Below, one piece after another: positions 12,679 through 57,987 of a stretch of 57,987 nucleotides of DNA. The stretch is taken from contig CAZQAA010000211.1 of the NCBI GenBank assembly GCA_964591255.1, forward strand, positions 1 through 57,987, given 5' to 3'. Every line of letters begins with the position of its first letter. Position 1 is the stretch's first letter. The translations under genes were made by a program, and so were the position numbers. This DNA is from an uncultured Desulfobacterales bacterium (GTDB taxonomy: Bacteria > Desulfobacterota > DSM-4660 > Desulfatiglandales > Desulfatiglandaceae). Under the pieces are notes generated by a model, which was not told the origin of the DNA, did not search any database, and saw nothing but the letters and a program-made list of their open reading frames with translations.

Positions 12679-12687
12679 AGGACTCAC

Positions 12688-37213: not shown

Positions 37214-37227
37214 TCTGTTTCCCCTCC

Positions 37228-37716
37228 TTAAAAAAGATTCCACAGATGAAGGGTGATAACAACTCCTGCCCAGGCGTATAGTCCTGCCAGGATATCGTCC
37301 ATTACAATGCCGATTCCTCCATACATGCGTTCGGCCTGTTTTATGGGAAACGGCTTTATGATATCGAATAAGCGGAAAAAGATAAAGCCGAGACAAATGA
37401 CCGACCAGGAAGTCGGCAGAAAAGACACGGCGAGCAGGAAACCTGCAACCTCGTCAATGACAATTGCCGGGGGATCTGGCAGTGTCAACATGGCTTGAGA
37501 ACGATCCGATGCCCAGATAGCGGTTACTATTATTATGGTCAGGCATAATATCCTGGAGATTATGCTGAATTTCCAGCACAGAAGGACAACAGGGATTGCT
37601 GCAATTGTACCGCATGTGCCAGGTGCCACCGGAAAAAGACCGGTGCCGAACCACGTAGACAACACCAGCGCAATTTTTCCGGATAGTGAGGATTTCCGGA
37701 AGACATCCCGTATCAT
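37228..37716 (-). CDS. pgpA: Phosphatidylglycerophosphatase A
   Basis: It reads LSTWFGTGLFPVAPGTCGTIAAIP...IVIDEVAGF....F......L.FI.FR.FDI.KP.PI...E...GG.GI..DD..AG.Y. I chose the start at 37716 (163 aa), but the RBS is poor and a TTG at 37749 is possible. The ORF-track start at 37935 looks non-coding. Confidence 0.75.
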   Translation of the reverse strand: MIRDVFRKSSLSGKIALVLSTWFGTGLFPVAPGTCGTIAAIPVVLLCWKFSIISRILCLTIIIVTAIWASDRSQAMLTLPDPPAIVIDEVAGFLLAVSFLPTSWSVICLGFIFFRLFDIIKPFPIKQAERMYGGIGIVMDDILAGLYAWAGVVITLHLWNLF

Positions 37717-41031: not shown

Positions 41032-42510
41032 TTAACCATTTGTTGTAAGACGATCGGACAGCACGAGGAGATCCTTTTCCACCATATTGTCTGTCCGTAT
41101 TTCATTAAACGGGATCGCATAACCTCGTCCTGAGCTTACAGCCGGCATAAGCCGTGATGTTCCCGCCTTTAGATATTCGGACACATTGTATGCCATTCTC
41201 TGGGCCAGTGTTATATCTTGGTTATTGGGGGCAGCCCCTCTGATGTCCCTGGAAAATGACTCACAGACCACCTTCCTTTTTATTTTTATGCCAGTTGCCA
41301 AAAGTTCTTTGTAAAAATATTCTGCCGCATTATCCTTTATCCCCTTCTCATTCCTCTCATCCTTTTTGTAACCCTCGGCTACAACAATTACACATTCATC
41401 ACGCCTGTTTAGGGCCTCCACCACTTTTTTATGGTCAATATCGGTGTTGGGAAGAACGGCCAAATGGGCCCTGGAACCGAGGCAGGAATGGAGGGCATGA
41501 AAGCCACTGCTCGCACCCATCATCTCTATTATATAGGTTCTCTTATGAGTCCTGGCATCGGCCATGTAACATCTGATCTTTTCAGAACCCATCTCTATGC
41601 CGGTATTTTCACCTATGCATTCGGTGCCGGCAATATCGCTGTCGATGGTAACAGGTATAAAAAACACCTGTATGGAGGTAGATATGAGATCACAGAGGGC
41701 CTTGGTTCCTCTAAACGTACCGTTACCGCCTATTGATATTATGGCTTTTACATTTTTTCTTTTAATGGTCTGTGCCGCCTTTTTCTTTATTTCATCCTTC
41801 ACAAAATCCTTATACCTTTCGGTTCTAAGTTGTGCTCCACGCCATTCTGACAAAGGAGCAGCATGAAACACGCCCGGGACATGGTCTAACTTCTTAAACA
41901 GTTCAGGATCATAAACAAGCCGTACAAAATCGTCATCATTACCTGTTACAAGAGACTTAAAACCTTCACGTGTTGCATACACTTCTCTGCCGATCCCTTC
42001 CAGGTGATAAGTGATAAAGGCGGTAACAGGGTTGTATCCAGGGGCGCAGCCGCCATCCTGGATAAGGAGGACGTCGATTTCATTAAACATTCTCTGGCTT
42101 TCCAGCTTTGTTTTTCTTATCTGCGAAGATATCCTTTCCCCAACCCTGATCCTGGCCAGCAGTTCATCTGGATCAACAGGTTTTTGGAGAAAGTCGTCAG
42201 CACCTTCGTTCATGCACCTTATCTTATCCTCCTTTGCCTCTTTGGCACTGACTATAATAAGATATATATCGGAAAGTTCGGCATCGGGGTCGGATTTTAT
42301 ATAGCGGCATAGCTCATGGCCATCCATCTCAGGCATCATCAGGTCGGATACTATGATATCCGGGATCCAGTCTTTGATCAGGTTCACGGCCTCTTTACCG
42401 TTTCCAGCTCCCCTCACCTCAAGTTCTGAAAGTGATTTCAGGATTTTCATGTAAAGCTCCCGGGTAGTTCTGTTGTCTTCCACCACCAGCACCCTGAATT
42501 TTTGCGCCAT
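41032..42510 (-). CDS. Response-regulator receiver domain fused to a divergent phosphofructokinase-family domain
   Basis: The REC domain reads VLVVEDN...DIIVSDLMMPEMDG...IIVSAK...GADDFL.KP. The PFK-fold motifs are LIQDGGCAPGYN, ISIGGNGT, IPVTIDSDI and IIEMMGASSG. I prefer the ATG at 42510 (GGAGG lies 6 nt upstream). Confidence 0.7.
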   Translation of the reverse strand: MAQKFRVLVVEDNRTTRELYMKILKSLSELEVRGAGNGKEAVNLIKDWIPDIIVSDLMMPEMDGHELCRYIKSDPDAELSDIYLIIVSAKEAKEDKIRCMNEGADDFLQKPVDPDELLARIRVGERISSQIRKTKLESQRMFNEIDVLLIQDGGCAPGYNPVTAFITYHLEGIGREVYATREGFKSLVTGNDDDFVRLVYDPELFKKLDHVPGVFHAAPLSEWRGAQLRTERYKDFVKDEIKKKAAQTIKRKNVKAIISIGGNGTFRGTKALCDLISTSIQVFFIPVTIDSDIAGTECIGENTGIEMGSEKIRCYMADARTHKRTYIIEMMGASSGFHALHSCLGSRAHLAVLPNTDIDHKKVVEALNRRDECVIVVAEGYKKDERNEKGIKDNAAEYFYKELLATGIKIKRKVVCESFSRDIRGAAPNNQDITLAQRMAYNVSEYLKAGTSRLMPAVSSGRGYAIPFNEIRTDNMVEKDLLVLSDRLTTNG

Positions 42511-42557
42511 AATCATCCTCCATGGTTTAGTATGTCTTTCTGAACGTACTTATTCCC

Positions 42558-43664: not shown

Positions 43665-43907
43665 ATGACAACAGAGACGGTTAAGAGAGTGAAAAAAGAT
43701 AATCAGCCTTTAGTAGAGCCGGATAATAAAACATCTGACCATGATTTTTCCCGGAAAAGGCTTATTGCATTAAATGCAGCATTTGAGGCTGCCAGGGCCG
43801 GGCAGACCGGATCTGAATTTGCCTTGTTGGTTGATAAAACCCTCCATATGGCGACAAAGACAAAAGAGGAAGATGTTAAAGATTCATCAATCTGTTATTT
43901 ATTATGA
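43665..43907 (+). CDS. 80-aa ORF carrying only the conserved hairpin-tip motif of methyl-accepting chemotaxis proteins (mini-protein or gene remnant)
   Basis: KRLIALNAAFEAARAGQTGSEFALLVDKT aligns by eye with the MCP tip consensus LALNAA.EAARAGE.GRGFAVVA.EV. I see no TM, HAMP or methylation helices. Confidence 0.4.
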   Translation: MTTETVKRVKKDNQPLVEPDNKTSDHDFSRKRLIALNAAFEAARAGQTGSEFALLVDKTLHMATKTKEEDVKDSSICYLL

Positions 43908-44239
43908 TTCGGGGTTCCATTGAGAGTGGAATTTAGATTTTTTATGGTGGGATGCCAGACTTCGTGAAAATGTTCCCAAAAAATGGTTTGCGCAAGGACA
44001 AACCTGTTATGGACTGATCCGGCTCCTTTCATCTTTTTATCCCAGGATTCCTGTAAGGCCCTCAGCCTTTTTTTCTGTTCTTCATCCCTTGCACTGTTAA
44101 TAACCTCTTCTATCATTCTTCTTCTTTCTTGCTCAAAGATGAACCTGTTTTCTTTAAATAGTGCAGATAGACGGGCATGCTCATTTAACGCATGTTTTTC
44201 TCTCTCCTGCCTTTCTTGCTCCCAGCTACGTCTTTTCAT
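43895..44239 (-). CDS. DUF3135-like protein
   Basis: FEQERRRMIEEVINSARDEEQKKRLRALQESWDKKM...IFWEHFHE resembles the DUF3135 pattern (F...R...IEE.I.SAP......LR.LQ..ID.......W..F.E). It overlaps the convergent 43665 ORF by 13 nt. Confidence 0.5.
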   Translation of the reverse strand: MKRRSWEQERQEREKHALNEHARLSALFKENRFIFEQERRRMIEEVINSARDEEQKKRLRALQESWDKKMKGAGSVHNRFVLAQTIFWEHFHEVWHPTIKNLNSTLNGTPNHNK

Positions 44240-44281
44240 ATTTTAATCTCCCCCGAGGATAAAGATATGAATTTAACTGAA

Positions 44282-44297
44282 TGCAAACAGCGTGCCG
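44282..44297 (-). promoter_or_regulatory. Sigma-54 (RpoN) -24/-12 promoter, near-consensus
   Basis: The minus strand reads CGGCACGCTGTTTGCA. It matches 11 of 12 defined positions of TGGCACG-N4-TTGCA with exact GG-N10-GC spacing. The -12 element lies about 44 nt upstream of the 44239 start, which has the RBS GGGGGAG. Confidence 0.65.
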
Positions 44298-44460
44298 ATT
44301 TGTAATTTTGATATATCTTTATAAATTTCAAATAGTTAATGAAGGGATAGTAAAGCTGATATATGATAAATTGTGAAGTGAAGGTTATAATATGTATATA
44401 AATATGTAGTTTATTTCATACAGCAATTGGCTTTACCAGCCATCCGGTAACGATTCTGGA

Positions 44461-45693
44461 TCAGGGTGCATCAGACAGGGCAAGTCTCAAGGTATTCATG
44501 CCTATTACGGATCCTCTTATTCTTATAGCAGCTATGCTGCCGCCCATTGTCCAAGAAAATGTTTTTTCTATATCATGGCCAATAACGGCCACGTGTGCAT
44601 TCACCGCATAGTCCTTCTTCTTCTCTTGTACAAATCCCAAGATGGCAAGCCCTATGTCTGCCTTTCCCTGTTCCATTGTTTTACGTGCGAGTTCAATAGC
44701 AGATTTTTCATCTGGATCAATGTCGTTCTTACATAGATATTGGGCAATACGTGTCTTGTCAGGGGTAACCATGCTCATTAACAACTGATGTGAAGGGAGT
44801 TGGTAAAATTTCTGTGCCGCCAATCCGCAGGAAAAGGTCTCCATTATTGCGAAGGTAAAATTTTTTTTAGTCAACATGGAATCGATTACACTTTCAAGTG
44901 TATCGTCATCTTCTCCAAAGATTTTGTTGCCCAGCCTGGACCGAATCTTTTCATAAATCGGCTTGATAAAGGTATCGGCCCGTTGCCCTTCCCTTGGTCT
45001 GGCGGTAATCCGTATCCTTATTCCCTCTTCAGAGGTCAGGATACCCACTTCAGGGTCTTGACCGGGCCTGATAAGATCGCCGATTAGGCGATCCACCTTA
45101 CTTTCACCAAGACCGATCACTTTTAATACCTTGTATTTTATCTCCCGGTCGTTGAGATTAAATCTTTGTATGATCCACGGTATAATTTCCTTGTCCAATA
45201 GAAATTTCAGCTCTCTTGGCACTCCGGGAAGACATATGATTTGGGGTCCACCGGCGTTGGTAATAAAGGCGGGAGCTGTACCGATGGGGTTATTGATGAC
45301 AAGGCTACCGGCAGGTACATAAGCCTGTCTCCGATTGTTATCAGGCATGTCATATCCATAGCGCCGAAATATATGTTCGATCTGTTCCATCAGGTCTTCC
45401 CTGAATTCCAGATCCATCCCTACGGCTTGGGCAACGGCTTCACGGGTCATGTCATCCAGGGTAGGACCCAGACCGCCGCTTGTAATTACTATATCACATC
45501 TTTTAAGCGCTAAACGGATAACCTGTATTATTTCCTCAAGCCTATCTCCTACCGCTGTCCTGAACCGGACGTTCACACCAATTTTGCCTAATTCCCTGGC
45601 AAGATAGGTAGTATTCGTGTCAGTAATTTGACCAAAAAGAAGCTCGCTGCCTATGGTGATAATTTCACAGACAGGCAAACCGGAATCATGCAT
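44461..45693 (-). CDS. CinA-family paralog: intact MoCF-binding domain, degenerate PncC-like C-terminal domain
   Basis: The N-terminus CEIITIGSELLFGQITDTN...TSGGLGPT.DD.T is canonical. The C-terminal domain has IMETFSCGL instead of AESCTGGL, and LGFVQEKKK where TGIAGPDGG is expected. The ATG at 45693 overlaps the upstream stop (ATGCATGA). Confidence 0.65.
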   Translation of the reverse strand: MHDSGLPVCEIITIGSELLFGQITDTNTTYLARELGKIGVNVRFRTAVGDRLEEIIQVIRLALKRCDIVITSGGLGPTLDDMTREAVAQAVGMDLEFREDLMEQIEHIFRRYGYDMPDNNRRQAYVPAGSLVINNPIGTAPAFITNAGGPQIICLPGVPRELKFLLDKEIIPWIIQRFNLNDREIKYKVLKVIGLGESKVDRLIGDLIRPGQDPEVGILTSEEGIRIRITARPREGQRADTFIKPIYEKIRSRLGNKIFGEDDDTLESVIDSMLTKKNFTFAIMETFSCGLAAQKFYQLPSHQLLMSMVTPDKTRIAQYLCKNDIDPDEKSAIELARKTMEQGKADIGLAILGFVQEKKKDYAVNAHVAVIGHDIEKTFSWTMGGSIAAIRIRGSVIGMNTLRLALSDAP

Positions 45694-45976
45694 ATTGGTA
45701 GATTGCGTATTCGGTTTTCGTTCCCAATAAGGCATCAATCTCGCGTACCAATTCAATCCTGCGCTTGATATTTACACAGGCTTTCCAGTCATCAAAAGAC
45801 TTCCATGTCCCTATCACCACGAATTCTTCTGGATCGTCGAGATTTCTCAGAGTTTCTCCGGAGATATAACCAGGTTGCGCTATTGCAAGAGTCCGCAACT
45901 CAATTAAGAGAGGGAGCAACTCCGCCTCTTTGCCCTTGGGCACCTTTCTTTTGATAATAGTCTTCACGGCAGACAT
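45686..45976 (-). CDS. Antibiotic-biosynthesis-monooxygenase (ABM/Dabb) fold protein
   Basis: The protein is about 96 aa. The segment A..QPGYISGETLRNLDDPEEFVVIGTWKS.DDW.A is typical of ABM domains. I prefer the ATG at 45976 (RBS GAGGAGGG). Confidence 0.55.
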   Translation of the reverse strand: MSAVKTIIKRKVPKGKEAELLPLLIELRTLAIAQPGYISGETLRNLDDPEEFVVIGTWKSFDDWKACVNIKRRIELVREIDALLGTKTEYAIYQYA

Positions 45977-46034
45977 GCTTTCCCTCCTCAATCCATTACC
46001 TGTTTATGAAGAACAGGCTGGCAAAAGGTATATC

Positions 46035-46247
46035 CTATTCATATACTATTAATATGGCATCTGCCTCAATTGTGTCACCCTTTTTACACTTTACTTCTGT
46101 CACTGTACCGCCTGATTCCGTAATTACAGGCAGTTCCATTTTCATGGCCTCAAGGATGACTATCTCGTCTCCTGCATTGATGGTATCTCCTACGTTTACT
46201 TTTACCTCGATCACTTTTCCCCCCATGGGAGCCCTAATTTCACCCAC
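46035..46247 (-). CDS. Biotinyl/lipoyl-type carrier protein (biotin carboxyl carrier, minimal 70-aa form)
   Basis: It reads I.APMGGKVIEVKVNVGDTINAGDEIVILEAMKMELPV, with the biotin-attachment motif EAMKM. The GTG start lies 7 nt after GAGGAGG. Confidence 0.8.
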   Translation of the reverse strand: MGEIRAPMGGKVIEVKVNVGDTINAGDEIVILEAMKMELPVITESGGTVTEVKCKKGDTIEADAILIVYE

Positions 46248-46348
46248 AACAAAACCTCCTCTTAATAGTTATTTTAACTTATACCACGATGGTCCTTTGA
46301 AAAAAAGCACAATCGGAATTTATCATGCTATAGAGAGACTGGCCTTCT

Positions 46349-48127
46349 TTATCCCTGGAGTGGTGCCAGACGTACATTTATTTCCCGGGCACGTTGCATA
46401 ATGAGCCTGGGAGTCAACATGTGATTATGGGGACATATGGATTTTGGATTTTGATAGGCAGCTTCAGTAAAGGCCACAATATATTTTCGCATTTCGGGAA
46501 AAGAGATTACTTCGTCAACGAATCCTTTTTTTGCGCAATAAACCGGACTTGATTTTTCAAAATAATCCTTTACCAGTTCGTTCATCTTTTCGATAACCGG
46601 CTCGAGTGGTCGGCCGGCATCCTTTTCTTTCACCAGCCTTCTCGCGAAAGTTGCCGCTGCAGCTGTTGGCCCATACATGACAGTTATCACGGTCGTCGGC
46701 GTTCCCAGGGTAAAGGCATTGTGATTGTTGGCTGTAGGTCCACCCATAACATAATGGGCAGCTGCCGTACCCTTTCTCAGGACAATACACATCTGCGGCA
46801 CATCAGTCTGTTCAATGGAATATATAAGTGATTGACCCAAACCAAGCAGCTCCGCCTGTTCCGCCTCATCTCCCACATCAATGCCTGTTGTGTCCTGGAA
46901 CCAGACAATAGGGATCCTGTCACGACCGCATAAGGTGACAAAGGCATTCATCTTTATCAGTCCCTGGCGATAAAGTTTGCCTCCCACACCCATATAGGAT
47001 GAGGTGTATTCCGGATAATTTTGCATCAAAAAACCTTGCCTGTTTCCTATGATCCCTACCAATAGACCGTTTATTTTGGCCAGGCCAGTATAAATTTCCG
47101 GTCCGTAATCCGGCCCGTATTCCATCTGTTCGCTATTGTCAACGACACGGGCAAGCACTTCACTGAACCTGTAAGCCCTCCTCTGGTTGAATTCAATAAT
47201 ATGGTTCAGGTCTTCTCCTGGAAATTTAGGCTCTTTCGGCTCGGCAACCCGGAAGAAAGAGAGATCATATGCCGGCACCATGGACATATATTTCTTGATG
47301 GCATCAAGCACATCTTGCTCAGTATCATACACCTCTTTAAAAAATCCGGTTTTGTTATAGTGGATATTTGCACTTCCGGGTGGTAGTTCCTTATAGTGCT
47401 TGGTAGCCTCGATAAGTTCTTCCGCCGATTTAAGATCAAAGTGCCCTTTTGGGCGCATCCCTCCCACAATTCCTCCACCTCCAACGGCCATGTTGGCATC
47501 CTTATGGGCCACAAGTATGGTAGGGCTTATGGCCTGATATCCGCCACCAGCTGGGTTTGTTCCATATATGCCGGCGATAATAGGTACTCCCAATTTTTCC
47601 AGCTCGGCATGGCGAAAAAAGGTGGTACCGTTTCCCCTCCTGTCTGCGTATACTTCTTCCTGTTCTGTGAGCTTTACGCCGCTGCAGTTGACGATCCAGA
47701 CCAGGGGCACACGAAGTCTTTTGGCCATATCAGTTACCCTGAGTTGGTTTTCCGCTTGTCCGGAAATCCAGGCTCCTGCCAGGACCTTGTTGTTAAATCC
47801 AATTACAACGGCCCATTTGCCATTGATTTTGGCCAGGCCGTCCACAACACCTGTGGTTCCCTCCTCATTGAATTTTGGGTTATAAAGGGTGTGAAGAGGA
47901 CACCAACTACCTGGATCTATAAGATATTCGATCCTGTCCCATACTGTCATCTCACCCCTTTTCTTGATTTTCTCATCAGGAATTCCGGCGTTCCTTACAG
48001 CCTTTATAGCGCTGGCAACCTCTTTTTCCACCTCCCTGATCTTGAGAACGTTTTCTTTCATATTCTCCTTCTGTTCAGAAGTGATCGGTTTCCCGAGAGG
48101 TTCCATTTCTTCAAAATACTGCCTCAT
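46349..48127 (-). CDS. Acyl-CoA carboxyltransferase, glutaconyl-CoA decarboxylase alpha (GcdA)/methylmalonyl-CoA decarboxylase alpha type
   Basis: The protein is about 592 aa with two crotonase-like carboxyltransferase halves. The N-terminal region (KKRGEMTVWDRIEYLIDPGSW....L) resembles GcdA as I remember it. I prefer the ATG at 48127 (GAGGAGG upstream). Confidence 0.7.
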   Translation of the reverse strand: MRQYFEEMEPLGKPITSEQKENMKENVLKIREVEKEVASAIKAVRNAGIPDEKIKKRGEMTVWDRIEYLIDPGSWCPLHTLYNPKFNEEGTTGVVDGLAKINGKWAVVIGFNNKVLAGAWISGQAENQLRVTDMAKRLRVPLVWIVNCSGVKLTEQEEVYADRRGNGTTFFRHAELEKLGVPIIAGIYGTNPAGGGYQAISPTILVAHKDANMAVGGGGIVGGMRPKGHFDLKSAEELIEATKHYKELPPGSANIHYNKTGFFKEVYDTEQDVLDAIKKYMSMVPAYDLSFFRVAEPKEPKFPGEDLNHIIEFNQRRAYRFSEVLARVVDNSEQMEYGPDYGPEIYTGLAKINGLLVGIIGNRQGFLMQNYPEYTSSYMGVGGKLYRQGLIKMNAFVTLCGRDRIPIVWFQDTTGIDVGDEAEQAELLGLGQSLIYSIEQTDVPQMCIVLRKGTAAAHYVMGGPTANNHNAFTLGTPTTVITVMYGPTAAAATFARRLVKEKDAGRPLEPVIEKMNELVKDYFEKSSPVYCAKKGFVDEVISFPEMRKYIVAFTEAAYQNPKSICPHNHMLTPRLIMQRAREINVRLAPLQG

Positions 48128-48312
48128 TCTTTGCCTCCTCATTATCCTTGGCGATTTTTAGCCAAAAATTGAAGTTAACAGCCCAATAAAAAGGGGTGAG
48201 AGAATCTTTCTCATGCGACCCTCAGTGCCAACTTGTGGGATACGTGCCTTAAAAAGGAGAGTCGCCAGCAGAATGTCATTGGGCTGATATGATCGAATTA
48301 TTTTTAATAATA

Positions 48313-48969
48313 TTAGATCATGGAAAGGAGTTTATTCACACCCTTTTCAATCCCCTTTGCAATATCTTTTATGCCCGGGCCAAGCATATACGCAGGAGCG
48401 CTCACTATTTTATTTTTTTCGTCCACTGCAATTTCGTCCACTGCGCATACAGTGTGCTTAACCCCAAGAGCATTTAATGCCATGATTGTTTCCTCATGGC
48501 TTCCAACGGTTACCTCGGGTGAATGGGTCTTTAATGCTGCTCCCACAGTTGCGGGCGCAATGCAAAAGGCACATATGGGTTTATGCTTTTTCAACATTTC
48601 TTCGAGTAAGCTTTTTACCTCCGGATTAACATCACATCCTGGGCCCTTGAAAGCAAAATCGCTCAGATTTTTGGCGGCACCGAATCCACCGGGCAGGATC
48701 AAGGCGTCAATATCATCGGCATTTATATCCTTCAAATCCTTAATATCACCCCGTGCGATCCTGGCAGATTCCACAAGCACATTTCGTGATTCCCCCGTTT
48801 CCTCATTCGTAAGGTGGTTGATAACATGGGCTTGAGGAATATCAGGAGCCATACAAATAATCTCTGCCCCCGCTTGATCAAGGTATAACATGGTCAGCAC
48901 GGCCTCATGTATTTCGGCCCCGTCAAGGAAGCCACATCCTGACAATAGTACACCTACTTTTTTAGACAT
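48313..48969 (-). CDS. elbB: DJ-1/PfpI-superfamily protein, ElbB-like
   Basis: KVGVLLSGCGFLDGAEIHEAVLTMLYLDQAGAE...LILPGGFGAAKNL matches the ElbB (isoprenoid biosynthesis/glyoxalase-like) pattern. It is 218 aa. Confidence 0.7.
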   Translation of the reverse strand: MSKKVGVLLSGCGFLDGAEIHEAVLTMLYLDQAGAEIICMAPDIPQAHVINHLTNEETGESRNVLVESARIARGDIKDLKDINADDIDALILPGGFGAAKNLSDFAFKGPGCDVNPEVKSLLEEMLKKHKPICAFCIAPATVGAALKTHSPEVTVGSHEETIMALNALGVKHTVCAVDEIAVDEKNKIVSAPAYMLGPGIKDIAKGIEKGVNKLLSMI

Positions 48970-48988
48970 CTTTTTTCCTCCTTTTTAT

Positions 48989-50977
48989 TCATATTTCACT
49001 GGGCATATGAGCGCAGACAATTTCTGCTATATCATACACTTTTTCTTCTTCAGTAAAGCCCTTTAATCCGTCCGTCATCATGAGAAGACAGAAGGGGCAT
49101 GCAGTGGCAATCATGTCTGCCCCTGTCGCCAGGGCTTCTTGAGCCCTTGCCCTGTTGATCCTTGTTCCCTCTTCTTCTGCCCAGTAGTTTCCTCCGCCGC
49201 CCCCACAGCAAAAGCTTGACTTTCCGTCTCGAGGCATTTTCGTTAGATTCCCCACCTTAGAGATAATGTTGCGTGGTTCAGTCAGAATATCATTATGCCT
49301 GGCAAAATAACATGGATCATGAAAAGTAATCTTGCTGGAACCGTCATTGATTTCAAGCCTGTGGGTTTCCATCAGGCGCTTGATCATAACTATATGGGGA
49401 ATGACCTCATATGTTCCCCCCAACTCAGGATAGTAATGGACAAAGCTATGATAACAGTGGGGACACATAGTAATAATTTTTTCAACGTTAAGAGTTGAAA
49501 AATCCTCGATATTTTGGAGGGCCAATTCATTAAACAGAAACTCGTTTCCCATCTGTTTTGCAGGGTCACCGGTACACCTGCTATCTTTTAGGATCCCAAA
49601 GGAGACCCCGGCCTTGTGAAGGATATCAACCATGGCCCTTGCAATTTTCTGTGCCCGTTCTTCATATATGATAGAACAGCCGATCCATAACAGGTATTCA
49701 CTTTTTCCTTTTTCAAATATAGGCACATCCAGTCCCTTTTGCCAGTCTTGTTTTCCTGTTCCGGTACCAAAAAAGGGATGGCCGCGGGCTTCCAGACTTT
49801 TGATTGCCTTGCCGGCCAGTTCCGGGACTCTGCCTTCCTCCATAATTAGATAACGCCTCATTTCTATGATATCGCGGAGGTGTTCATTCCCTACAGGACA
49901 GACATTGGCACAGGCACCACAGGTGGTGCATTGCCAGAGTTCATCCTCAGAGATTGAATCTCCAATGAGATTAATGCGTTCTATCTCATTCCATGTTTCT
50001 TGTGGAGCAGCAAGGAGTCTTGGACCATTAGCAAAAAGATTTTCCTTGATAGAGAGAATGATTTCCTTGGGAGATAGGGCCTTGCCGGTACTGTTTGCAG
50101 GACACTGGTCCATACAGCGGCCGCACTCGGTACATGTATATCCATCAAAGAGTTGTTTCCAGCTTAAATCTTCTACCTTGGATACACCCAAGACATCCAG
50201 TTCTTCTGCATCAAAATCGATCATAGGGAGATGGACAAGAGGCGGGGGATAATGTCTGAAAAAATTGGCCGGTACTGCCGTAAATACATGCAGGTGTTTA
50301 CTGTTTGGAATGTAGTCCAGGAAAAATAGCAGCACAACAAGATGTACCCACCACATAATTTCGAACATGTTATGGTTGAAGTCATGAATACCGGCCATGT
50401 TAACAAAAAGGTGAGTTAACGGCATCCAGTCTGCAGCAATGCTTGAAAACCCTCTCTCTTCCGGATTGACGAGGCGCAGGGAGTTCATGCCCAGGAGGGT
50501 GATCATTAAAATGCAGATGAGACCCAGTATCAGATAAGCGGTCAGATGGTAGTTGATTTGCGTGGGCCTTAAAACAAATCTCCTGAAAAATGCCATAACC
50601 ATTGCCAGGATAACGACAACTATAAATATATCTTGAGATAAGAGGAAGATGTTGAAAATGGGATATCCCAAAAAGGAGAAATCAAAGCCAGGAATAATGC
50701 CTCCCAGGACAAACTCAATCTCGCCGGGAAGAAGGATCAGGAATCCGAATATAATAAATATATGCATGATCCCGGCATAGGTGTAATCTGCTACGGGAAC
50801 ACGGAACTGAGAAAATTGAAGGATGCTTTGTTTTATCGTCGTCCAGAGCCTTTTTATGGGCTGCTGGAAACGGTTTTCTTCCTTGCCTATGGCCAGCAAC
50901 TTAAACAGATAGATTACCCGGTATGTGAAATAGCCAAGGGACAGGATTACTCCAACTGTCGCCAATACCGATTTCAT
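48989..50977 (-). CDS. Membrane-bound FeS oxidoreductase (N-terminal multi-TM domain fused to an HdrD/DsrK/GlpC-like domain); candidate Etf:menaquinone oxidoreductase
   Basis: About 6 TM helices are followed by CTECGRCMDQCP and CTTCGACANVCP (2x[4Fe-4S]) and then two CCG-type cysteine clusters (MCPHCYHS, DPCYF, FCCGGGGG, TACPFC). It sits immediately downstream of etfBA. Confidence 0.75.
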   Translation of the reverse strand: MKSVLATVGVILSLGYFTYRVIYLFKLLAIGKEENRFQQPIKRLWTTIKQSILQFSQFRVPVADYTYAGIMHIFIIFGFLILLPGEIEFVLGGIIPGFDFSFLGYPIFNIFLLSQDIFIVVVILAMVMAFFRRFVLRPTQINYHLTAYLILGLICILMITLLGMNSLRLVNPEERGFSSIAADWMPLTHLFVNMAGIHDFNHNMFEIMWWVHLVVLLFFLDYIPNSKHLHVFTAVPANFFRHYPPPLVHLPMIDFDAEELDVLGVSKVEDLSWKQLFDGYTCTECGRCMDQCPANSTGKALSPKEIILSIKENLFANGPRLLAAPQETWNEIERINLIGDSISEDELWQCTTCGACANVCPVGNEHLRDIIEMRRYLIMEEGRVPELAGKAIKSLEARGHPFFGTGTGKQDWQKGLDVPIFEKGKSEYLLWIGCSIIYEERAQKIARAMVDILHKAGVSFGILKDSRCTGDPAKQMGNEFLFNELALQNIEDFSTLNVEKIITMCPHCYHSFVHYYPELGGTYEVIPHIVMIKRLMETHRLEINDGSSKITFHDPCYFARHNDILTEPRNIISKVGNLTKMPRDGKSSFCCGGGGGNYWAEEEGTRINRARAQEALATGADMIATACPFCLLMMTDGLKGFTEEEKVYDIAEIVCAHMPSEI

Positions 50978-50994
50978 AAGGTTTTCTCCGTATC

Positions 50995-51882
50995 TTATTT
51001 GGCCTTTTTGATCGTCTCGATCAAGATCGGAACGACTTTCTTGTAGTCTTCCACAATACCGAATCTCGCGCGCTTGAAAATGTTTGCCTCTTCATCCCTG
51101 TTTATGGCAATCACGCATTTTGCATTGGTTATTCCTGCCAGGTGTTGGCTTGCACCTGAGACACCTATGGCAAAATATATTGTAGGCGCCACTATCTTTC
51201 CCGTCTGGCCTACCTGGAGTTGCGGAGGCATCCAGCCTTCGTCCACTGCCCCTCTTGATGCCCCCACTGCCCCTTTGAGGAGGTCAGCTATTTCCCTGAG
51301 CATGCTGAAATTTTCAGCGCTGCCTACACCACGCCCGCCGGTAACTACAACCTCTGCGTCTTCAAGTGGAATCCCCTCGGTCTTTTCTTCCCTTTCCGCT
51401 ATAAACGTGACGGCCTTTTTTTCAATGGCCAACTGAAGTGTCTCGCTGGTACCTTCCAGAGGGTCTTTTTCAAAGTAATTGCGTCTTATAGTAATCACAA
51501 CCGGTGTTTTTTCTATCTTGTATTTTGCAACACTCTTTCCGCCGTACAGGGGTTTTTCCAGTACAAGATCAGGTGTGATTCCCGTTACCTCCGACATGAT
51601 CGGTGCAGAAAGGTGCACGGAAAGAGGGGCTGCAATACCTCCCCCGATTGTGGTGGAAGTCAAAAGAATAATCTCATAGCCTTCTTTTTTTATGAGATCC
51701 ACAAGGGATGGAAGTATATTCGCCCCTATGGTCTCTTCTGTCTGGAAGACCTTGCCAAATCCCCCGGGCACGGCCCCTTCACCAATGGCCACAAGATCGG
51801 GTGTGTCTCCGAAGACCTTGCTTGCTGTAACCAATTCCCCCAGCCTGTTTGGATCGACGATTTCCACGATGAGTGTCTTCAT
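50995..51882 (-). CDS. etfA: Electron transfer flavoprotein alpha subunit
   Basis: The C-terminal FAD-binding motif reads VGQTGKIVAP.IYFAIGVSGASQHLAG. It is 295 aa and has no N-terminal ferredoxin extension. The start overlaps the etfB stop as ATGA. Confidence 0.9.
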   Translation of the reverse strand: MKTLIVEIVDPNRLGELVTASKVFGDTPDLVAIGEGAVPGGFGKVFQTEETIGANILPSLVDLIKKEGYEIILLTSTTIGGGIAAPLSVHLSAPIMSEVTGITPDLVLEKPLYGGKSVAKYKIEKTPVVITIRRNYFEKDPLEGTSETLQLAIEKKAVTFIAEREEKTEGIPLEDAEVVVTGGRGVGSAENFSMLREIADLLKGAVGASRGAVDEGWMPPQLQVGQTGKIVAPTIYFAIGVSGASQHLAGITNAKCVIAINRDEEANIFKRARFGIVEDYKKVVPILIETIKKAK

Positions 51883-52634
51883 AGATAACGTTCCTCCTTT
51901 AGTTTGTTCAGGAGCATTTCAGCGGCCTGGTTTATGTCATCAACAGGCAAAAACTCGCAAACAGATTCTATGGTTGGGATCTCCACGGATATCTCCTCTG
52001 CAGGCATGGGATCTGTATCTATCCCGGGAATTTTTTCCACAGGCATCTTCTTGGCCGCCAATATCCTTCGAACCGGAGGAATGCGTGGAACGTTGCTTGT
52101 GTCGTCAGTGATGGAAATGACGCCTTTACCTGCAAATTCCATCTCTCTTGACCCTTTTTCTGTTATCTGATTTACTTTCCAGTTGCCATCAATGTTCTCT
52201 ATCTGGCTTATCTGTGGAATAAAGGTATACCCCAACATCCCGGCCAGAATTCCTGGCACAACACCTCTGTCCATATCTGCGGATTGTCTGCCCGCAAGAA
52301 CGAGATCTACATCACCAAGCTGTTGAATCGCCATCTTCAAATTGGCCGCTATCATATTGGGGTCATCCGAGCTTCCAATAACCAGGACCAGCTTGTCTCC
52401 GCCCATGGCGATGGCCTTCCGCAAAACGGGTATGTCATCTTCCCTGCCATAAGATATGATTGTCAGCTGGGCGGAATATTTTTCCTTGATCTGCACCCCC
52501 ACTTCAACGGCATTTTCATCATAAAGCCCGATCATTCGTGTATATCTTTCATGTGCCCTGCCATTTACCAGCTCAAAGTCGGCGGCAGGCACCTCATAAT
52601 CGGGTACGACTTTAGCGCATACTGCAATATGCAT
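51879..52634 (-). CDS. etfB: Electron transfer flavoprotein beta subunit
   Basis: It reads IAVCAKVVPD...LVLAGRQS.D......P..LA..LG. I prefer the ATG at 52634 (GGGAGG lies 8 nt upstream) over the GTG at 52643. Confidence 0.85.
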   Translation of the reverse strand: MHIAVCAKVVPDYEVPAADFELVNGRAHERYTRMIGLYDENAVEVGVQIKEKYSAQLTIISYGREDDIPVLRKAIAMGGDKLVLVIGSSDDPNMIAANLKMAIQQLGDVDLVLAGRQSADMDRGVVPGILAGMLGYTFIPQISQIENIDGNWKVNQITEKGSREMEFAGKGVISITDDTSNVPRIPPVRRILAAKKMPVEKIPGIDTDPMPAEEISVEIPTIESVCEFLPVDDINQAAEMLLNKLKEERYL

Positions 52635-52677
52635 TGGTAGCACCTCCCAGGTTATTCAGACCGGCCCTGAAAACCGA

Positions 52678-53448
52678 TCAATTTCCCTTGTATTCAGGGG
52701 CCCTCTTCTCGGCAAATGCCGTAAATCCCTCTTTTCTGTCCTCTGTGTCTCTCAAGATTCCCCACATAAGATGAGAGAAGAGGATTGCATGGTCAATAGG
52801 CATGTCCTGCCCGAGGACAGCAGCCTGTTTTGCCGCCTTGACTGATAAGGGCGCGTTGGCCGCGATACGTTCAGCATATTTCTTTGCAAGGTCCATTAAT
52901 TGATCCGGTTCTACCAGATCGCTTACAAGTCCAACCCTATATGCTTCTTCTGCATCGATCATCTCTCCGGTCAGGAGCATCTTCATGGCAATTGCCTGAG
53001 GAATTGCCCGGGGAAGGCACTGGGTTCCGTTCAGGCCGGCAAGACTTGCCACCTTTACCTCGGTCAAACCAAACTTGGCCTTTTTAGAGGCTATCCTGAG
53101 GTCGCAGGCAAGGGCCATCTCGAGACCGCCGCCCACTGCATACCCGTTAATAGCCGCAATTATCGGCTTCCACATTTTCATGTATGGAATTATCGGCATA
53201 CCCTCATTCAGGTAGGTTGCAGCCATACACTCCTTGGGGGGAGGGGTCTTCTTCATATCCGTCCCTGTGGAAAAGGCCTTTTCTCCTGCTCCGGTCAGTA
53301 CAATAACGCGAATTTCACGATCTTCCCTGACTTCAGTCCATATATTTTTCAACTGCTCAAGAGATTCAGGATCTAATGAATTCATGGCCTCAGGCCTGTT
53401 AAGTGTGATATACGCCACATGCCCTTCTCTTAAAAAATCAACGCCCAT
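52678..53448 (-). CDS. Enoyl-CoA hydratase/isomerase (crotonase) family protein
   Basis: It reads ITLNRPEAMNSL...VIVLTGAG.KAFS.G.D......INGYAVGGGLEMALACDLRIA. It is 256 aa. Confidence 0.9.
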   Translation of the reverse strand: MGVDFLREGHVAYITLNRPEAMNSLDPESLEQLKNIWTEVREDREIRVIVLTGAGEKAFSTGTDMKKTPPPKECMAATYLNEGMPIIPYMKMWKPIIAAINGYAVGGGLEMALACDLRIASKKAKFGLTEVKVASLAGLNGTQCLPRAIPQAIAMKMLLTGEMIDAEEAYRVGLVSDLVEPDQLMDLAKKYAERIAANAPLSVKAAKQAAVLGQDMPIDHAILFSHLMWGILRDTEDRKEGFTAFAEKRAPEYKGN

Positions 53449-53460
53449 TGTTAATTCCTC

Positions 53461-54690
53461 CTAATAATCCTTTTCTACAATAAATGGATCATACGGTTTT
53501 TTTGATCGCAGAATTTGTCTTGCAATCAACCATCTGTGTATCTCTGATGGTCCTTCCAGGATTCTCCATATCCGTACCATCCGAGCTACATACTCGATGC
53601 CGAGTTCCCTTGAGACTCCCAGCCCGCCGTGGAGCTGGATTGCCCTGTCAGCTACGCGTGTCAGCATCTCGGTTGCAGCCACCTTTACAGCTGCTCCTTC
53701 AACACGCAGGTCCTTGTATCCCTGGTCTGATTTCCATGCCGCGTAGTAGAGCAGCCACCTTGTCTGCTCGAGTTCCATAGTGGAGTCTGCAATCCAGTTC
53801 TGGACAGTCTGTCGCTCGGCCAAGGGTTTCCCGAATGTAACCCTGTTGTTGGCCTGCTCGATCATCATCTGTATAAGCCGCTCCGCCATTCCTGTACAAT
53901 GCGCGGCCAATTCGATCCTGCGCACTCCAAATCGATTCTGAAGGGGGATGAATGCCTTCCCTACCTCTCCAAGAACCGCATCATCGTCAACTTCCACGTC
54001 CTCAAGTATTAAATCCCATACGGGCATTGCCCCGATAACCGGGATCTCCCGGCCCTTACGAAGACCTGGATGATCCCTGTCTATTAGAAACGCAGTGAAC
54101 TTGTCCTTGGCGGGAGCATCGGGATCTGTGACGGCAATCAATATGAAGAAGACGTTTGGATAATCGAGCTTGCTTATAAAGGTCTTTGTCCCGTTTATTA
54201 TCCACTTGTCTCCTTTTTTAACAGCCCTGGTTTTGAGGCCGCTCACGTCGGAGCCCGCATCTGGCTCCGTGACTGCCATTGCAGAATCAATCTCGTCATT
54301 GCAATAGGGAACAAAATATTTTTCCTTCTGCTTTTCGTTACAGCACTCTTTCAGATAGTAGAGGTTTGGTGCATCAGGGGGAAGGGTAAAACCGTGATGT
54401 GAGAATCCTACCAGGCACTTGCACATCTCTTCTACTACCAAAGTCTTGGCCAGCATGCCGAGACCCTGGCCGCCGTATTTTTCCTCAACTTCAAGACCCC
54501 AAAACCCGAGTTCCTTCGCTGCCTTCAATAATCTTGCATGATCTTCCTCAGAAATAAGGGGACCGGGTTCTGTCCACAGGCTTAGCTCTCGATCGAGAAG
54601 TCCCTTTTCAAGGGGCATCATTTCCCGTTTAACAAACTCCCTCATTGCCTCTTTCAACATCATATATTCTTCAGGTATGGAGAAATCCAT
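53461..54690 (-). CDS. Acyl-CoA dehydrogenase
   Basis: The ACAD layout reads F.IPEE..ML.EA.REF...E., MAVTEPDAGSD, the middle beta domain and the C-terminal R...ILEGPSEIHR. I prefer the ATG at 54690 (MDFSIP..., GGGAG upstream). Confidence 0.9.
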   Translation of the reverse strand: MDFSIPEEYMMLKEAMREFVKREMMPLEKGLLDRELSLWTEPGPLISEEDHARLLKAAKELGFWGLEVEEKYGGQGLGMLAKTLVVEEMCKCLVGFSHHGFTLPPDAPNLYYLKECCNEKQKEKYFVPYCNDEIDSAMAVTEPDAGSDVSGLKTRAVKKGDKWIINGTKTFISKLDYPNVFFILIAVTDPDAPAKDKFTAFLIDRDHPGLRKGREIPVIGAMPVWDLILEDVEVDDDAVLGEVGKAFIPLQNRFGVRRIELAAHCTGMAERLIQMMIEQANNRVTFGKPLAERQTVQNWIADSTMELEQTRWLLYYAAWKSDQGYKDLRVEGAAVKVAATEMLTRVADRAIQLHGGLGVSRELGIEYVARMVRIWRILEGPSEIHRWLIARQILRSKKPYDPFIVEKDY

Positions 54691-54751
54691 TTTCAACTCC
54701 CATGTCAAATTGCAGGCGGATAGTTGGGTGTGCTCACAAGTCGCCGTTTAA

Positions 54752-55984
54752 TCAGGTCAACACCCCTTTTTCCACCAGTTTTGAGATTTCATTGTCCGTG
54801 TAACCCAAAAAGTCCGTCAATACATCCTCGGTATGTTCACCAAGAAGCGGTGCAGCCTTGTTCATTTGTATAGGCGTCTTGGAAAAAAGAATCGGCGCCC
54901 TGTTGTAATTGCTGATTCCCATCTCTGGATGCTCCAAATATGCCCAAAACCCCCGTTCAATCAGGTGTTCGTCTTCGATCGCAGCACGTGCATCATTTAC
55001 AAGCCCGGCCTTGACACCCCCTTTTATTAACTTCTCCATCAATTGTTTACCGTATTGCAGACGGGTCCAATTTTCTATTTTGTCATTTAATTCCTGCTCG
55101 TTTTCTTTGCGGGCTGACAGCGTCGAAAATTTTGGATCATCCGCCCATGAGGGATTGTCCATGACCCGTTTAAACGCGTACCATTCGTCTTCGGTAAAAA
55201 CAGCAATCGCAATCCATTTCCGGTAACCGAGGGTTGTGTATACTCCGTGAGGCGCTGCATCGGGATCGCCAAAACCGATCGGTCCCAGGATGTCGCCATT
55301 TGCGGCATATGTCATAACATCCATAGGTTTCATGGCTATTGAAGCCGCCAACTGGGAAACCGCCACCTGCTGGCCCTTTCCCGTGACTTCTCTATTCAGC
55401 AATGCCGCTATTATCCCAAAAATAGTATGGCTCGGGACCATCACGTGGTCTGTGTAGTTGGTTCCTGTACCAAAAGGCCTCTGGCCCTCAAAGGCGCTTT
55501 GCTCTGTAAGGCCACAAAGGGCATTCAGGTTGACGCCAAAACCCATATAGGAGCTGTGGGGACCTTTTGTTCCCTGCAGGCTCATGGTGACATATATGAT
55601 CCGAGGGTTAATTTCTTTTACATCATCCCATCCAAGCCTCCATTTTTCCATCTGCCCGACTCGAAAATTGTTGATGATGATGTCGCTTTTTTTTATTAGC
55701 CGGACGGCTATATCACGGGCTTCTGGATGTCCCATATTGAGGGCTATACATTTTTTGTTAGGATTACGGTTGGCAAAATATCCGCTTCGTTCCATACCCT
55801 TCGCTATTCCGTCCTTAAAAGGACCTCCAAGCCTCAAGATGTCCGGCCTTTTTTTGCTTTCGATCTTTATGATTTCGGCACCACACTGACCCAGAACATT
55901 GGTGGTTATCGGGCCTGCTCCTACCCAGGAAAAGTCACAAACAACGATTCCTTCCAGTGCCCTTTTCCATTTATTTCCCGACAT
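54752..55984 (-). CDS. Family III (CaiB/BaiF) CoA-transferase, second of a tandem pair (BbsF-position)
   Basis: It reads [34 protein letters not shown]...R. The length, about 410 aa, is typical for the family. The ATG at 55984 is preceded by GAGGAGG and overlaps the upstream gene by 14 nt. Confidence 0.8.
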
Positions 55985-57218
55985 GGATAACCTCCTCTTT
56001 TGACAGGGTATCAATTTCATCCTTTGTATATCCGAGTTCTTCCATAATCTCGGCGGTATGTTGGCCAAAGGTGGGCGCCGGAGTGCCCAGGCGCCATTTA
56101 AGATTGCCGAATTCATACGGGGGCCCGGGATAGGTCACTTCTCCGCCGCCTAAGGATTCATGATTGAGGGTCTGCCAGAAATTAAGAGACCTGAGCTGTG
56201 GATTTTCAAACAGGTCTTTACCGTTGCTTACAGGTGAAATAGCCGTTTTGGCTGCTTGGCCCGCATCATAAAGATATAGCTTGTCATGTTTCATTGTGTA
56301 TTGCTCAAAGATCCTGCAGAAGGTCTCATATCCCTCATGCGATGACCGATAAGCGGGTTCTATCCATTTGTCATCGTCGAAGACTTCCCATTCTGCCACA
56401 TTTTCGTTTTTCATCCAGGCTACAAATCTGTCCCACATTCCCTTGTTTTTTCCCATAATTGCAACGATGACCACATAGCCATCCTTACATGGATGGACGG
56501 TGGCAGTGCCCGCCTCCTTGCCCCTTCCGCGCCTGTTTTTTCCCTCTAAATCATAATACTGAATGGCATTTTCAAGGGCCATTCCTACTGCTTCCATACA
56601 AGATATATCTATAAATTGTCCCACACCAGATTTTCGCGCAAACAAGAGTGCTACAGCACTTCCCACCGCTGCATATGCCTCAGCCATTCTATAAGACTGA
56701 TTATCACAGGCCCTCACAGGTTTATCGTTGTCCACGCCCGCCAGAAAGAGGAACCCCCCCAGGGCCGAGCACGTGAGATCCGAACCGGGAAATTCCGAGT
56801 ATGGGCCTATATGTCCAAATGGAGTGATGGATGTATGTACAAGCCTTGGGTTATGGGCGCTCAAAATATCATAAGAAAGCCCGAGGGCTTTCAGGTATCC
56901 GGGAACAAAGCTTTCCAGCAGTATGTCGGCTGAGGCACACAGTTTGCAAAACAGGTCCTTTCCTTCCTCTTTTTCCAGATCCAGGGCCATTCCCCTCTTG
57001 CCGGCATTGTAATAAAGGTATTGTAGGCTTCTTTCCATACCAGGTTCGTTATTGTAGAACGGCCCACGCTTCCTTAAAGGATCTCCAGCTATCGGCTCTA
57101 AATGGATGACATCGGCACCAAGCCCTGCATACAGTTTTGCTGCATATGGACCAAGTTCCCCCGTGAAATCAATAACCCTAACGTCACTCAATGAGTCAGT
57201 GAGTCCTTTTTCAGCCAT
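55971..57218 (-). CDS. Family III (CaiB/BaiF) CoA-transferase, first of a tandem pair (BbsE-position)
   Basis: It reads [38 protein letters not shown]. It is about 415 aa. I prefer the ATG at 57218 because the ORF-track start at 57335 would overlap the SDR gene. Confidence 0.8.
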
Positions 57219-57258
57219 TTTTGCTCTCCTGTCCTTGTAGGCATCAATATATTTTTTT

Positions 57259-57987
57259 CTAACCTGAAAAAAGGCTCCTGCCTCCACAAACATAAAGGAC
57301 CTGTCCCGTAATATATGACGCTTCTTCATCTGCAAAAAACATTACTGCATTGGCAATGTCATCCACATCACCGAGTTTTCCCGTGGGCTGTTTGGAAAGC
57401 AGAAAGTCTTTATTTTTTTCAGGCAGGGCATCCCATAACGGTGTATGGATTAGGCCGGGAGCAATACAATTGGATGTGACTCCTTTCCTACCCAGTTCAA
57501 GGGCCAAAACCCTGGTAAGTCCCACCATACCCGCTTTGGCCGATGAATAAGGCGCCTGACCAGGACCTCCAAGCCAGGCGCGTGAAGCGATGTTTATTAT
57601 ACGTCCGAATCCCTGTTCCACCATATGTCCGTGTACGGCCTGGCTACACAGGAATGTCCCCTTTAGGTTTACATTAATGGTGACGTCCCAATCAGCTTCA
57701 CTGAGTTTCCGTAATGCGCCTGCTTTTTCCATCCCCGCGTTGTTAACCAGGATATCCACTCCGCCTAATTCATCGTTGATCTCGGAAACCATCTTTTCCA
57801 CATCTTCCCTGTTGGTGATGTCACAAACCTTGCCTATGACATCAAGACCTTTTTCTTTAAATTCCCTTACGGTCTCATTCACTTTATCACTGATAATATC
57901 GTTTATTACGATTTTTGCCCCATTTTCGGCCATACGCATTGCAGTTTGTTTACCAATACCGCTTGCAGAACCGGTTACAAGTGCTGT
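57259..57987 (-). CDS. Short-chain dehydrogenase/reductase (FabG-like), 5' end outside the window
   Basis: The reading frame stays open to the window edge and there encodes [13 protein letters not shown] (Rossmann TGxxxGIG). NNAG and the catalytic YSSAK follow, so the Met at 57939 in the ORF track is internal. Confidence 0.85.

Follow-up and report, generated by a model that had tools for sequence, protein, structure and literature searches.

In the denitrifying toluene degraders Thauera and Aromatoleum, the bbs genes for the oxidation of benzylsuccinate are arranged in the order bbsABCDEFGH. The bbs operons of strict anaerobes additionally include an electron transfer flavoprotein (ETF) along with an ETF:menaquinone oxidoreductase (EMO) (PMC10818641). 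Geobacter metallireducens (Gmet_1521-1531), Desulfobacula toluolica, and D. phenolica, for instance, carry the same eight bbs genes together with etfB, etfA, and the gene for a membrane iron-sulfur (FeS)/CCG oxidoreductase. The bns clusters (naphthyl-2-methylsuccinate) of strain NaphS2 and enrichment culture N47 share this gene order, including etfBA and the FeS gene, and adjoin nms genes. Here, we analyzed a complete 57,987-bp contig from an uncultured bacterium, CAZQAA010000211.1, referred to as the window herein, and the operon on its minus strand at 48989-57987. This region very probably represents the distal two-thirds of a bbsABCDEFGH-etfBA-EMO operon whose products oxidize (R)-benzylsuccinate, or a close arylmethylsuccinate, to aroyl-CoA and succinyl-CoA (CoA, coenzyme A). 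As judged from its sequence, the locus qualifies as a bona fide bbs-type operon; it follows the strict-anaerobe variant and comes from a new uncultured lineage. Its bbs genes follow the order seen in Thauera and Aromatoleum. In contrast to the Aromatoleum loci, which consist of bbsA-H in an operon that lacks etfAB and the FeS oxidoreductase, it has both; unlike the bns clusters, it has no linked nms genes.

Gene content and orthology of the operon

The operon enters the window with bbsD (57259..57987 and beyond), which encodes a short-chain dehydrogenase/reductase (SDR; Pfam adh_short). The contig end has removed the first 6 of its 248 codons, leaving 242, and the TGxxxGxG, NNAG, and YSSAK motifs are all present. 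After a gap of 40 nt follow the genes for two family-III CoA-transferase subunits (both Pfam CoA_transf_3), bbsE (55971..57218, 415 aa) and bbsF (54752..55984, 410 aa), which overlap by 14 nt. A 61-nt gap separates bbsF from bbsG (53461..54690), which encodes a 409-aa FAD-dependent acyl-CoA dehydrogenase (ACAD) with three ACAD Pfam domains, and 12 nt separate bbsG from bbsH (52678..53448), the gene for a 256-aa enoyl-CoA hydratase (crotonase; Pfam ECH_1). The ETF subunits are encoded 34-43 nt further on by etfB (51879..52643; beta subunit, 251-254 aa, Pfam ETF) and etfA (50995..51882; alpha subunit, 295 aa, Pfam ETF and ETF_alpha), which share a 4-nt ATGA overlap. Lastly, 17 nt beyond etfA lies the gene for a 662-aa membrane FeS/CCG oxidoreductase, the presumed EMO (48989..50977). 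An earlier reading made from the letters and open reading frames (ORFs) of the window, referred to as the sequence-only reading herein, had described eight minus-strand genes with this order and spacing, and both the coordinates and the Pfam domains bear that description out. For bbsE, public automatic gene calls put the start 25 codons further upstream, which would give a 440-aa protein (window 55971-57335) and a 35-nt overlap with bbsD. Alignment to the solved BbsE structure and to homologues of 413-414 aa favors the 415-aa start (ATG at 57218) given in the earlier reading. Promoter and terminator scans of 43800-57987 returned counts that did not exceed the shuffled expectation and placed no site at any gene boundary.

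The sequence-only reading had also proposed that the window cuts the operon before bbsABC, and predicted a second SDR, a thiolase, and a small Zn-ribbon subunit upstream. Exact-protein look-ups with the crotonase retrieved two contigs that reach past this end, ENA k141_340083 (L001) and NCBI GCA_054029115.1 JBPNUL010000036.1 (L002). Both are 99.8% identical to the window across 15.3 kb, with window position 57987 corresponding to L001 position 3264. Beyond that point they carry the remainder of bbsD and then genes for a second SDR of 251 aa, a thiolase of 389 aa, and a 151-aa Zn-ribbon/OB (DUF35) protein, which match BbsC, BbsB, and BbsA, respectively, of PDB entries 7pcs and 7pxp. All three predicted genes are thus present, and the operon does continue into bbsC, bbsB, and bbsA. 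BbsC lacks the TGxxxGxG and NNAG motifs that BbsD retains, which fits the known pairing of a pseudo-enzyme with an active subunit, and BbsA contains two CxxC pairs.

Comparison with solved structures moved the assignment beyond gene order alone. The two transferases match the subunits of benzylsuccinate CoA-transferase, BbsE with 587 bits (PDB 9fn0_A, residues 10-412; next entry 143 bits) and BbsF with 643 bits (PDB 9fn0_B; no other entry at E ≤ 1e-40). BbsB scores 704 bits against the benzoylsuccinyl-CoA thiolase subunit (PDB 7pxp_C; next 204), BbsA 249 bits against PDB 7pxp_A, the full-length L001 copy of BbsD 396 bits against BbsD (PDB 7pcs_B; next 220), BbsC 203 bits against BbsC (PDB 7pcs_A), and EtfA 413 bits against PDB 5ow0_A (residues 1-293; next 158). 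For BbsG, of which PDB holds no solved structure, generic ACADs at ~180 bits are the best matches. Identities to the Aromatoleum proteins are 74-78% for BbsA and BbsB, 45-47% for BbsC, 69-73% for BbsD, 61-62% for BbsE, 66-67% for BbsF, 70% for BbsG, and 76-78% for BbsH. Closer relatives are found elsewhere: BbsF is 74% identical to the Desulfobacula toluolica protein named BbsF in UniProt, 75% to its NaphS2 homologue, and 72-78% to many proteins labeled BbsF by JGI. BbsG is 82% identical to that of Geotalea and 86% to those of NaphS2 and a Desulfatiglandales metagenome-assembled genome (MAG), BbsH reaches up to 82% with deltaproteobacterial loci, and EtfB is 60-73% identical to the etfB products encoded after bbsH in other Desulfobacterota bbs loci. 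Taken together, these structural matches and identities support the bbs-type operon that the sequence-only reading had proposed.

A cluster for generic acyl-CoA beta-oxidation, of the fatty acid, cyclohexanecarboxylate, carnitine, oxalate, or bile-acid type, could resemble a bbs operon in gene order only. What speaks for it is that NCBIfam assigns BbsD-H to FabG, succinate-glutarate or formyl-CoA transferase, acryloyl-CoA reductase, and short-chain enoyl-CoA hydratase. NCBIfam holds no models for BbsC-H, and these hits are sub-threshold and fall far under their cut-offs (e.g., 176 versus 750 and 222 versus 640). BbsA and BbsB, in turn, exceed their NCBIfam equivalog cut-offs, with 282 versus 250 and 806 versus 750. 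Moreover, scores against the solved Bbs proteins are three- to fourfold those against any other PDB entry, and the nearest named homologues are BbsF proteins. For the transferases, the matches to Bbs structures together with the sub-threshold NCBIfam hits exclude the carnitine, oxalate, and bile-acid clades, against which the sequence-only reading had wanted them tested. We regard a generic cluster as extremely improbable, and this explanation is effectively already refuted.

To place the operon among its relatives, we scanned GTDB, at one genome per species, with BbsB and annotated the 32 resulting loci by BLAST comparison with the operon's own proteins. The full order bbsABCDEFGH-etfB-etfA-FeS gene is found in ~20 Desulfobacterota loci, including those of Desulfonema magnum, several Desulfobacula, Desulfotignum, Desulforhabdus sp. 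TSK, and a Desulfatiglandales MAG (L007), and in several of these a fumarate-adding glycyl radical enzyme adjoins the operon. These ~20 loci, along with published accounts (PMC10818641), agree with the earlier statement that a dedicated EtfAB and a membrane FeS oxidoreductase are typical of obligate anaerobes.

Predicted route and the membrane oxidoreductase

When steps are assigned by orthology to the characterized enzymes, the route would begin with BbsEF moving CoA from succinyl-CoA onto the free acid. The FAD enzyme BbsG would then form the benzylidene double bond and pass two electrons to the dedicated EtfAB, from which the membrane FeS/CCG protein would deliver them to menaquinone. The double bond would be hydrated by BbsH and the resulting alcohol oxidized by BbsCD, with D as the active subunit and C as the pseudo-enzyme without an NAD motif. 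BbsAB would finally cleave the product to benzoyl-CoA and succinyl-CoA. That electrons run from BbsG via ETF to menaquinone is our inference, as is any requirement for membrane potential at the menaquinone step.

The sequence-only reading had given the FeS protein a multi-transmembrane domain, two [4Fe-4S] motifs, and two CCG clusters. All of these domains are present: ~5 hydrophobic, presumably transmembrane, stretches lie within residues 1-225, CxxCxxCxxxC motifs start at residues 282 and 350, and two stretches match the Pfam CCG domain. However, a literal CCG occurs only in the second of these (residues 590-592), so this part of the description holds at the level of domains. Across its full length, the protein is 81% identical to that of locus L040 (JGI 3300039254) from a sister species, 70% to that of L045 (one of three loci, L045-L047, in MAGs GCA_053939655, GCA_053988215, and GCA_053990175), and 69% to that of N47, compared with 44-47% for Desulfobacula, L007, and NaphS2 (the last at 44%). 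This disparity resides in the membrane anchor. Over residues 1-270, this locus, L040, L045, and N47 are 65-78% identical, whereas identity to the NarI-like variant of Desulfobacula, NaphS2, and L007 is at most 27%, still alignable; the cytoplasmic part retains 57-59% identity to the same three. His72, His212, and His230 are invariant across both anchor variants, which fits a heme-b anchor. We considered whether the FeS protein carries an unrelated membrane domain and rejected this, as the anchor aligns with the NarI-like variant and shares its three invariant His residues. From these alignments, two anchor variants exist and have passed between clusters: since their distribution disagrees with the tree of Bbs proteins described below, either the gene or its anchor must have been exchanged.

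Substrate and fumarate-adding enzymes

Among the loci collected, four types of fumarate-adding glycyl radical enzyme adjoin bbs-like clusters. An 862-aa BssA type is found in L007, Desulforhabdus, a Syntrophobacteraceae MAG, and Geotalea. The ~810-aa type of Desulfobacula, Desulfotignum, and Desulfonema is 54-56% identical to the 862-aa BssA type, and in Desulfobacula it adjoins the bbs cluster whose BbsF bears the Tol2 name. NaphS2 carries the NmsA type. Lastly, L045-L047 carry an 834-aa type (L046:1373-3877, minus strand), accompanied by a 74-aa small subunit and an activase. This enzyme shares 53% identity with NmsA of NaphS2, 50% with the ~810-aa Desulfobacula type, and 48% with the 862-aa BssA type. 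NCBIfam contains no model for fumarate-adding enzymes, and typing all four linked types with it gave only sub-threshold hits to other glycyl radical enzymes.

A bootstrapped neighbor-joining tree of BbsD+E+F+G+H (1742 columns) joined this operon first to its sister L040 and next to L045, with 100% bootstrap in both cases. NaphS2, whose cluster is linked to NmsA, grouped with the BssA-linked L007 and Geotalea, which indicates that the Bbs tree follows lineage and not the type of linked enzyme. Pairwise identities to NaphS2 (B 85%, D 77%, E 71%, F 75%, G 86%, and H 80%) are matched by those to L007 (85%, 78%, 73%, 74%, 86%, and 80% in the same order). Identities to N47, on the other hand, are ~61% for BnsE, ~68% for BnsF, 79% for BnsG, and 79% for BnsH, no higher than those of toluene-linked clusters. 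There is hence no bns-specific affinity to N47, and only the FeS protein is N47-like. The sequence-only reading had called the substrate unknown, and this was fair, since similarity to the bns cluster of NaphS2 and to the toluene-linked clusters is equal and the Bbs tree does not track the linked enzyme. What the tree does delineate is a well-supported sub-lineage made up of this operon, L040, and L045-L047, which on the sequences compared is marked by the N47-type oxidoreductase and by downstream genes for gcdA and a biotin carrier.

Within this framework, benzylsuccinate formed from toluene is, by a narrow measure, the probable substrate. Several observations weigh against it. No fumarate-adding glycyl radical enzyme is encoded in the 58-kb window, and on the contigs that extend it a linked one is likewise absent, and nothing but a small ORF and a truncated piece of an OAD_beta gene lies 5′ of bbsA. 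The nearest clade-mate with a linked enzyme carries the 834-aa type, which belongs to an uncharacterized clade. The bns cluster of NaphS2, located next to nmsA, is as similar to the operon as toluene-linked clusters are, and the FeS protein is the variant of N47, a 2-methylnaphthalene degrader.

The last three of these observations lend weight to another aryl-substituted (arylmethyl)succinate as the natural substrate, processed by the same chemistry. That substrate could be a methyl- or hydroxy-benzylsuccinate derived from xylenes or cresols, as in bhs; it could also be 2-naphthylmethylsuccinate, as in bns, or whatever adduct an uncharacterized fumarate-adding enzyme forms. For instance, within the clade formed by this operon, its sister, and L045 at 100% bootstrap, the only member with a linked enzyme has the 834-aa type, the bns D-H proteins of NaphS2 are 71-86% identical to those studied here, equal to the toluene-linked L007, and Bbs phylogeny is independent of the linked enzyme. 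Furthermore, bhs variants for cresols are documented (PMC4148979), as are bns variants (PMC2988823). Yet BbsA and BbsB pass equivalog cut-offs that were built for benzoylsuccinyl-CoA thiolase, and BbsE and BbsF resemble their N47 counterparts no more than those of Aromatoleum, and less than those of toluene-linked deltaproteobacterial clusters (68-75%). Toluene-linked enzymes also differ by ~45% among themselves, so a divergent enzyme need not mean a new substrate. As for NaphS2, its cluster was named bns by the authors, who left the assignment of genes to substrates open, and the strain also grows on toluene (PMC2988823). On balance, a substrate other than benzylsuccinate is a serious possibility that falls somewhat short of even. 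A more specific proposal, which we consider unlikely, is that the sub-lineage serves the uncharacterized 834-aa clade, with the succinate adduct of some aromatic hydrocarbon that is neither toluene nor 2-methylnaphthalene, or that the operon is here an orphan module using adducts made by others.

The region upstream of bbsA bears on the latter point. Comparison of the available segments (L001:1-620, L002:1-500, and L040:1-530) revealed, within the 620 bp 5′ of bbsA, a gene fragment that matches only positions 197-280 of 349 of Pfam OAD_beta, corresponding to a 3′-truncated gcdB-like gene for a Na+-decarboxylase beta subunit. The small hydrophobic ORF 5′ of bbsA carries a frameshift in L001 but is intact in L002 and L040. 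A sigma-70-like site, TTGACA-N16-TAGAAT, is located ~70 nt 5′ of bbsA (L001:520-560, outside the window) and overlaps a 10-bp palindrome, AAACATGTTT, and a second ACATGT; a further motif, AACATTCAATAT, is common to L001 and L040. The palindromic, promoter-like site may be an operator; no TetR gene adjoins it here. Every contig of this species ends ~600 bp 5′ of bbsA, and the 32.6-kb contig of the sister species (L040) ends there too. The break at this position in all assemblies of both species points to a repeat, which may be a gcdB paralogue, or to a rearrangement. All contigs retrieved by exact matching of the BbsH and BbsE proteins end within ~600 bp of bbsA, and JGI metagenomes scanned at the DNA level for exact copies of a promoter 37-mer and of a bbsA 32-mer yielded no longer contig.

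If the genome lacked a fumarate-adding enzyme altogether, the operon would be an orphan that scavenges benzylsuccinate-type metabolites from the community or a recent acquisition that has not been integrated. Consistent with this, the double-TetR regulator and glycyl radical enzyme genes found just 5′ of bbsA in L007, L016, L046, and L049 are not present here, the truncated gcdB-like fragment preceding bbsA suggests a rearrangement, and the sister L040 is arranged likewise and also has no linked enzyme. However, non-linkage is common, such an enzyme being absent within 10 kb at the Aromatoleum, L009, and L014 loci as well, and the available contigs, which stop ~600 bp upstream, are silent on the rest of the genome. 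In addition, the genes are all intact and the arrangement is kept in two species at ~80% identity, which argues for selection. We therefore consider an orphan operon improbable, and retain a bbs-type operon, with benzylsuccinate as the favored substrate, as the explanation of this locus.

Neighboring genes, host, and relation to known systems

Downstream of the FeS gene, separated by 19 nt, is a gene for a 218-aa ElbB-like DJ-1/PfpI protein (48313..48969, minus strand; NCBIfam ElbB equivalog, 324 versus a cut-off of 180), which is probably the last gene of the transcription unit. Its counterparts occupy the position after the FeS gene in L040 (80% identity), NaphS2 (75%), and Desulfobacula (66%); the coordinates of these copies are L039:10670-11329, L040:12631-13287, and L049:17162-17824. 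Next on the minus strand are gcdA (46349..48142), which encodes the carboxyltransferase subunit of glutaconyl-CoA decarboxylase (760 bits to GcdA, PDB 1pix), and a gene for a 70-aa, GcdC-like biotin carrier (46035..46247; Pfam Biotin_lipoyl, 69 bits). In strict anaerobes, glutaconyl-CoA decarboxylase is part of the lower benzoyl-CoA pathway, so its linkage to bbs makes physiological sense, and gcdA is a neighbor from that pathway that lies outside bbs proper. In three species (that studied here, that of L040, and that of L045-L047), gcdA and the biotin-carrier gene are located directly downstream of the bbs-etf-FeS block (window 45686-48142, minus strand; L040:13323-15564; L045:12002-14334); here and in L045-L047, these are followed by a gene for an ABM-fold protein.

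Two CinA-like paralogues are also encoded on the minus strand of the window. One, at 35951-37396, has the C-terminal CinA domain, and the other, at 44461-45756, has only MoCF_biosynth and KH domains. The latter adjoins the gcd genes, and in L040, too, a gene of the latter kind comes after gcd. A 524-aa AMP-forming acyl-CoA ligase is encoded on the plus strand at 39432-41006, 8 kb from the operon, and at 41032-42516 (minus strand) lies a gene for a 494-aa protein of unusual architecture, in which an N-terminal response-regulator receiver is fused to a phosphofructokinase domain. The rest of the window consists of housekeeping genes (alaS, recA, cinA, uvrB, cysS, ispF, selA, and fusA) and efflux pumps. 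The latter stand in tandem at 8459-17301 (plus strand), with a resistance-nodulation-division pump (membrane-fusion protein, 1040-aa AcrB-like protein, and outer-membrane factor) and a MacAB-like ATP-binding cassette pump, and may help a hydrocarbon degrader to tolerate solvents.

With regard to the host, the alanyl-tRNA synthetase (AlaS) is 100% identical to that of GCA_054029115.1 and at most 71% identical to any other protein, with named matches in MAGs labeled Thermodesulfobacteriota, Deltaproteobacteria, or Desulfatiglandaceae. Because of this distance, the lineage is one without a close cultured relative. The best BbsB match among GTDB representatives, from a Desulfatiglandales MAG, is only 85% identical, and the species is thus not represented there. 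The 881-aa ORF at 31661-34306, once considered as a glycyl radical enzyme, was rejected as such, being alanyl-tRNA synthetase.

The operon adds an uncultured Thermodesulfobacteriota lineage to the carriers of a full benzylsuccinate-type module with its own ETF and menaquinone-linked oxidoreductase. This is useful for judging hydrocarbon-degradation potential in metagenomes, with the warning that the substrate cannot be read from bbs genes alone. Points for the specialist are the two exchanged anchor variants, the ElbB-like gene as a conserved extra in several Desulfobacterota, and the linkage of the sub-lineage to glutaconyl-CoA decarboxylase. The accepted view of the pathway is not altered by any of them.

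Among its relatives, the closest to this locus are L040 and L045-L047, which belong to the same 100% bootstrap clade and share with it the FeS-protein variant (70-81% identity) and the gcdA and biotin-carrier genes directly downstream. L045-L047 differ in having, upstream, a double-TetR regulator and the divergently transcribed gene for the 834-aa glycyl radical enzyme together with that for its activase, and in lacking the ElbB-like gene that is present here, while L040 ends just upstream of bbsA as the contigs of this species do. Compared with the Desulfobacula and Geobacter type, the locus has no adjoining double-TetR regulator or bss genes and carries gcdA and gcdC directly downstream; with Desulfobacula and with the bns cluster of NaphS2, it shares the ElbB-like gene after the FeS gene. 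In Geotalea, the same genes are split into two blocks, in which E-H, etf, and the FeS gene precede A-D. The arrangement of the operon has already been described in the literature, and the locus is a further example of this known system.

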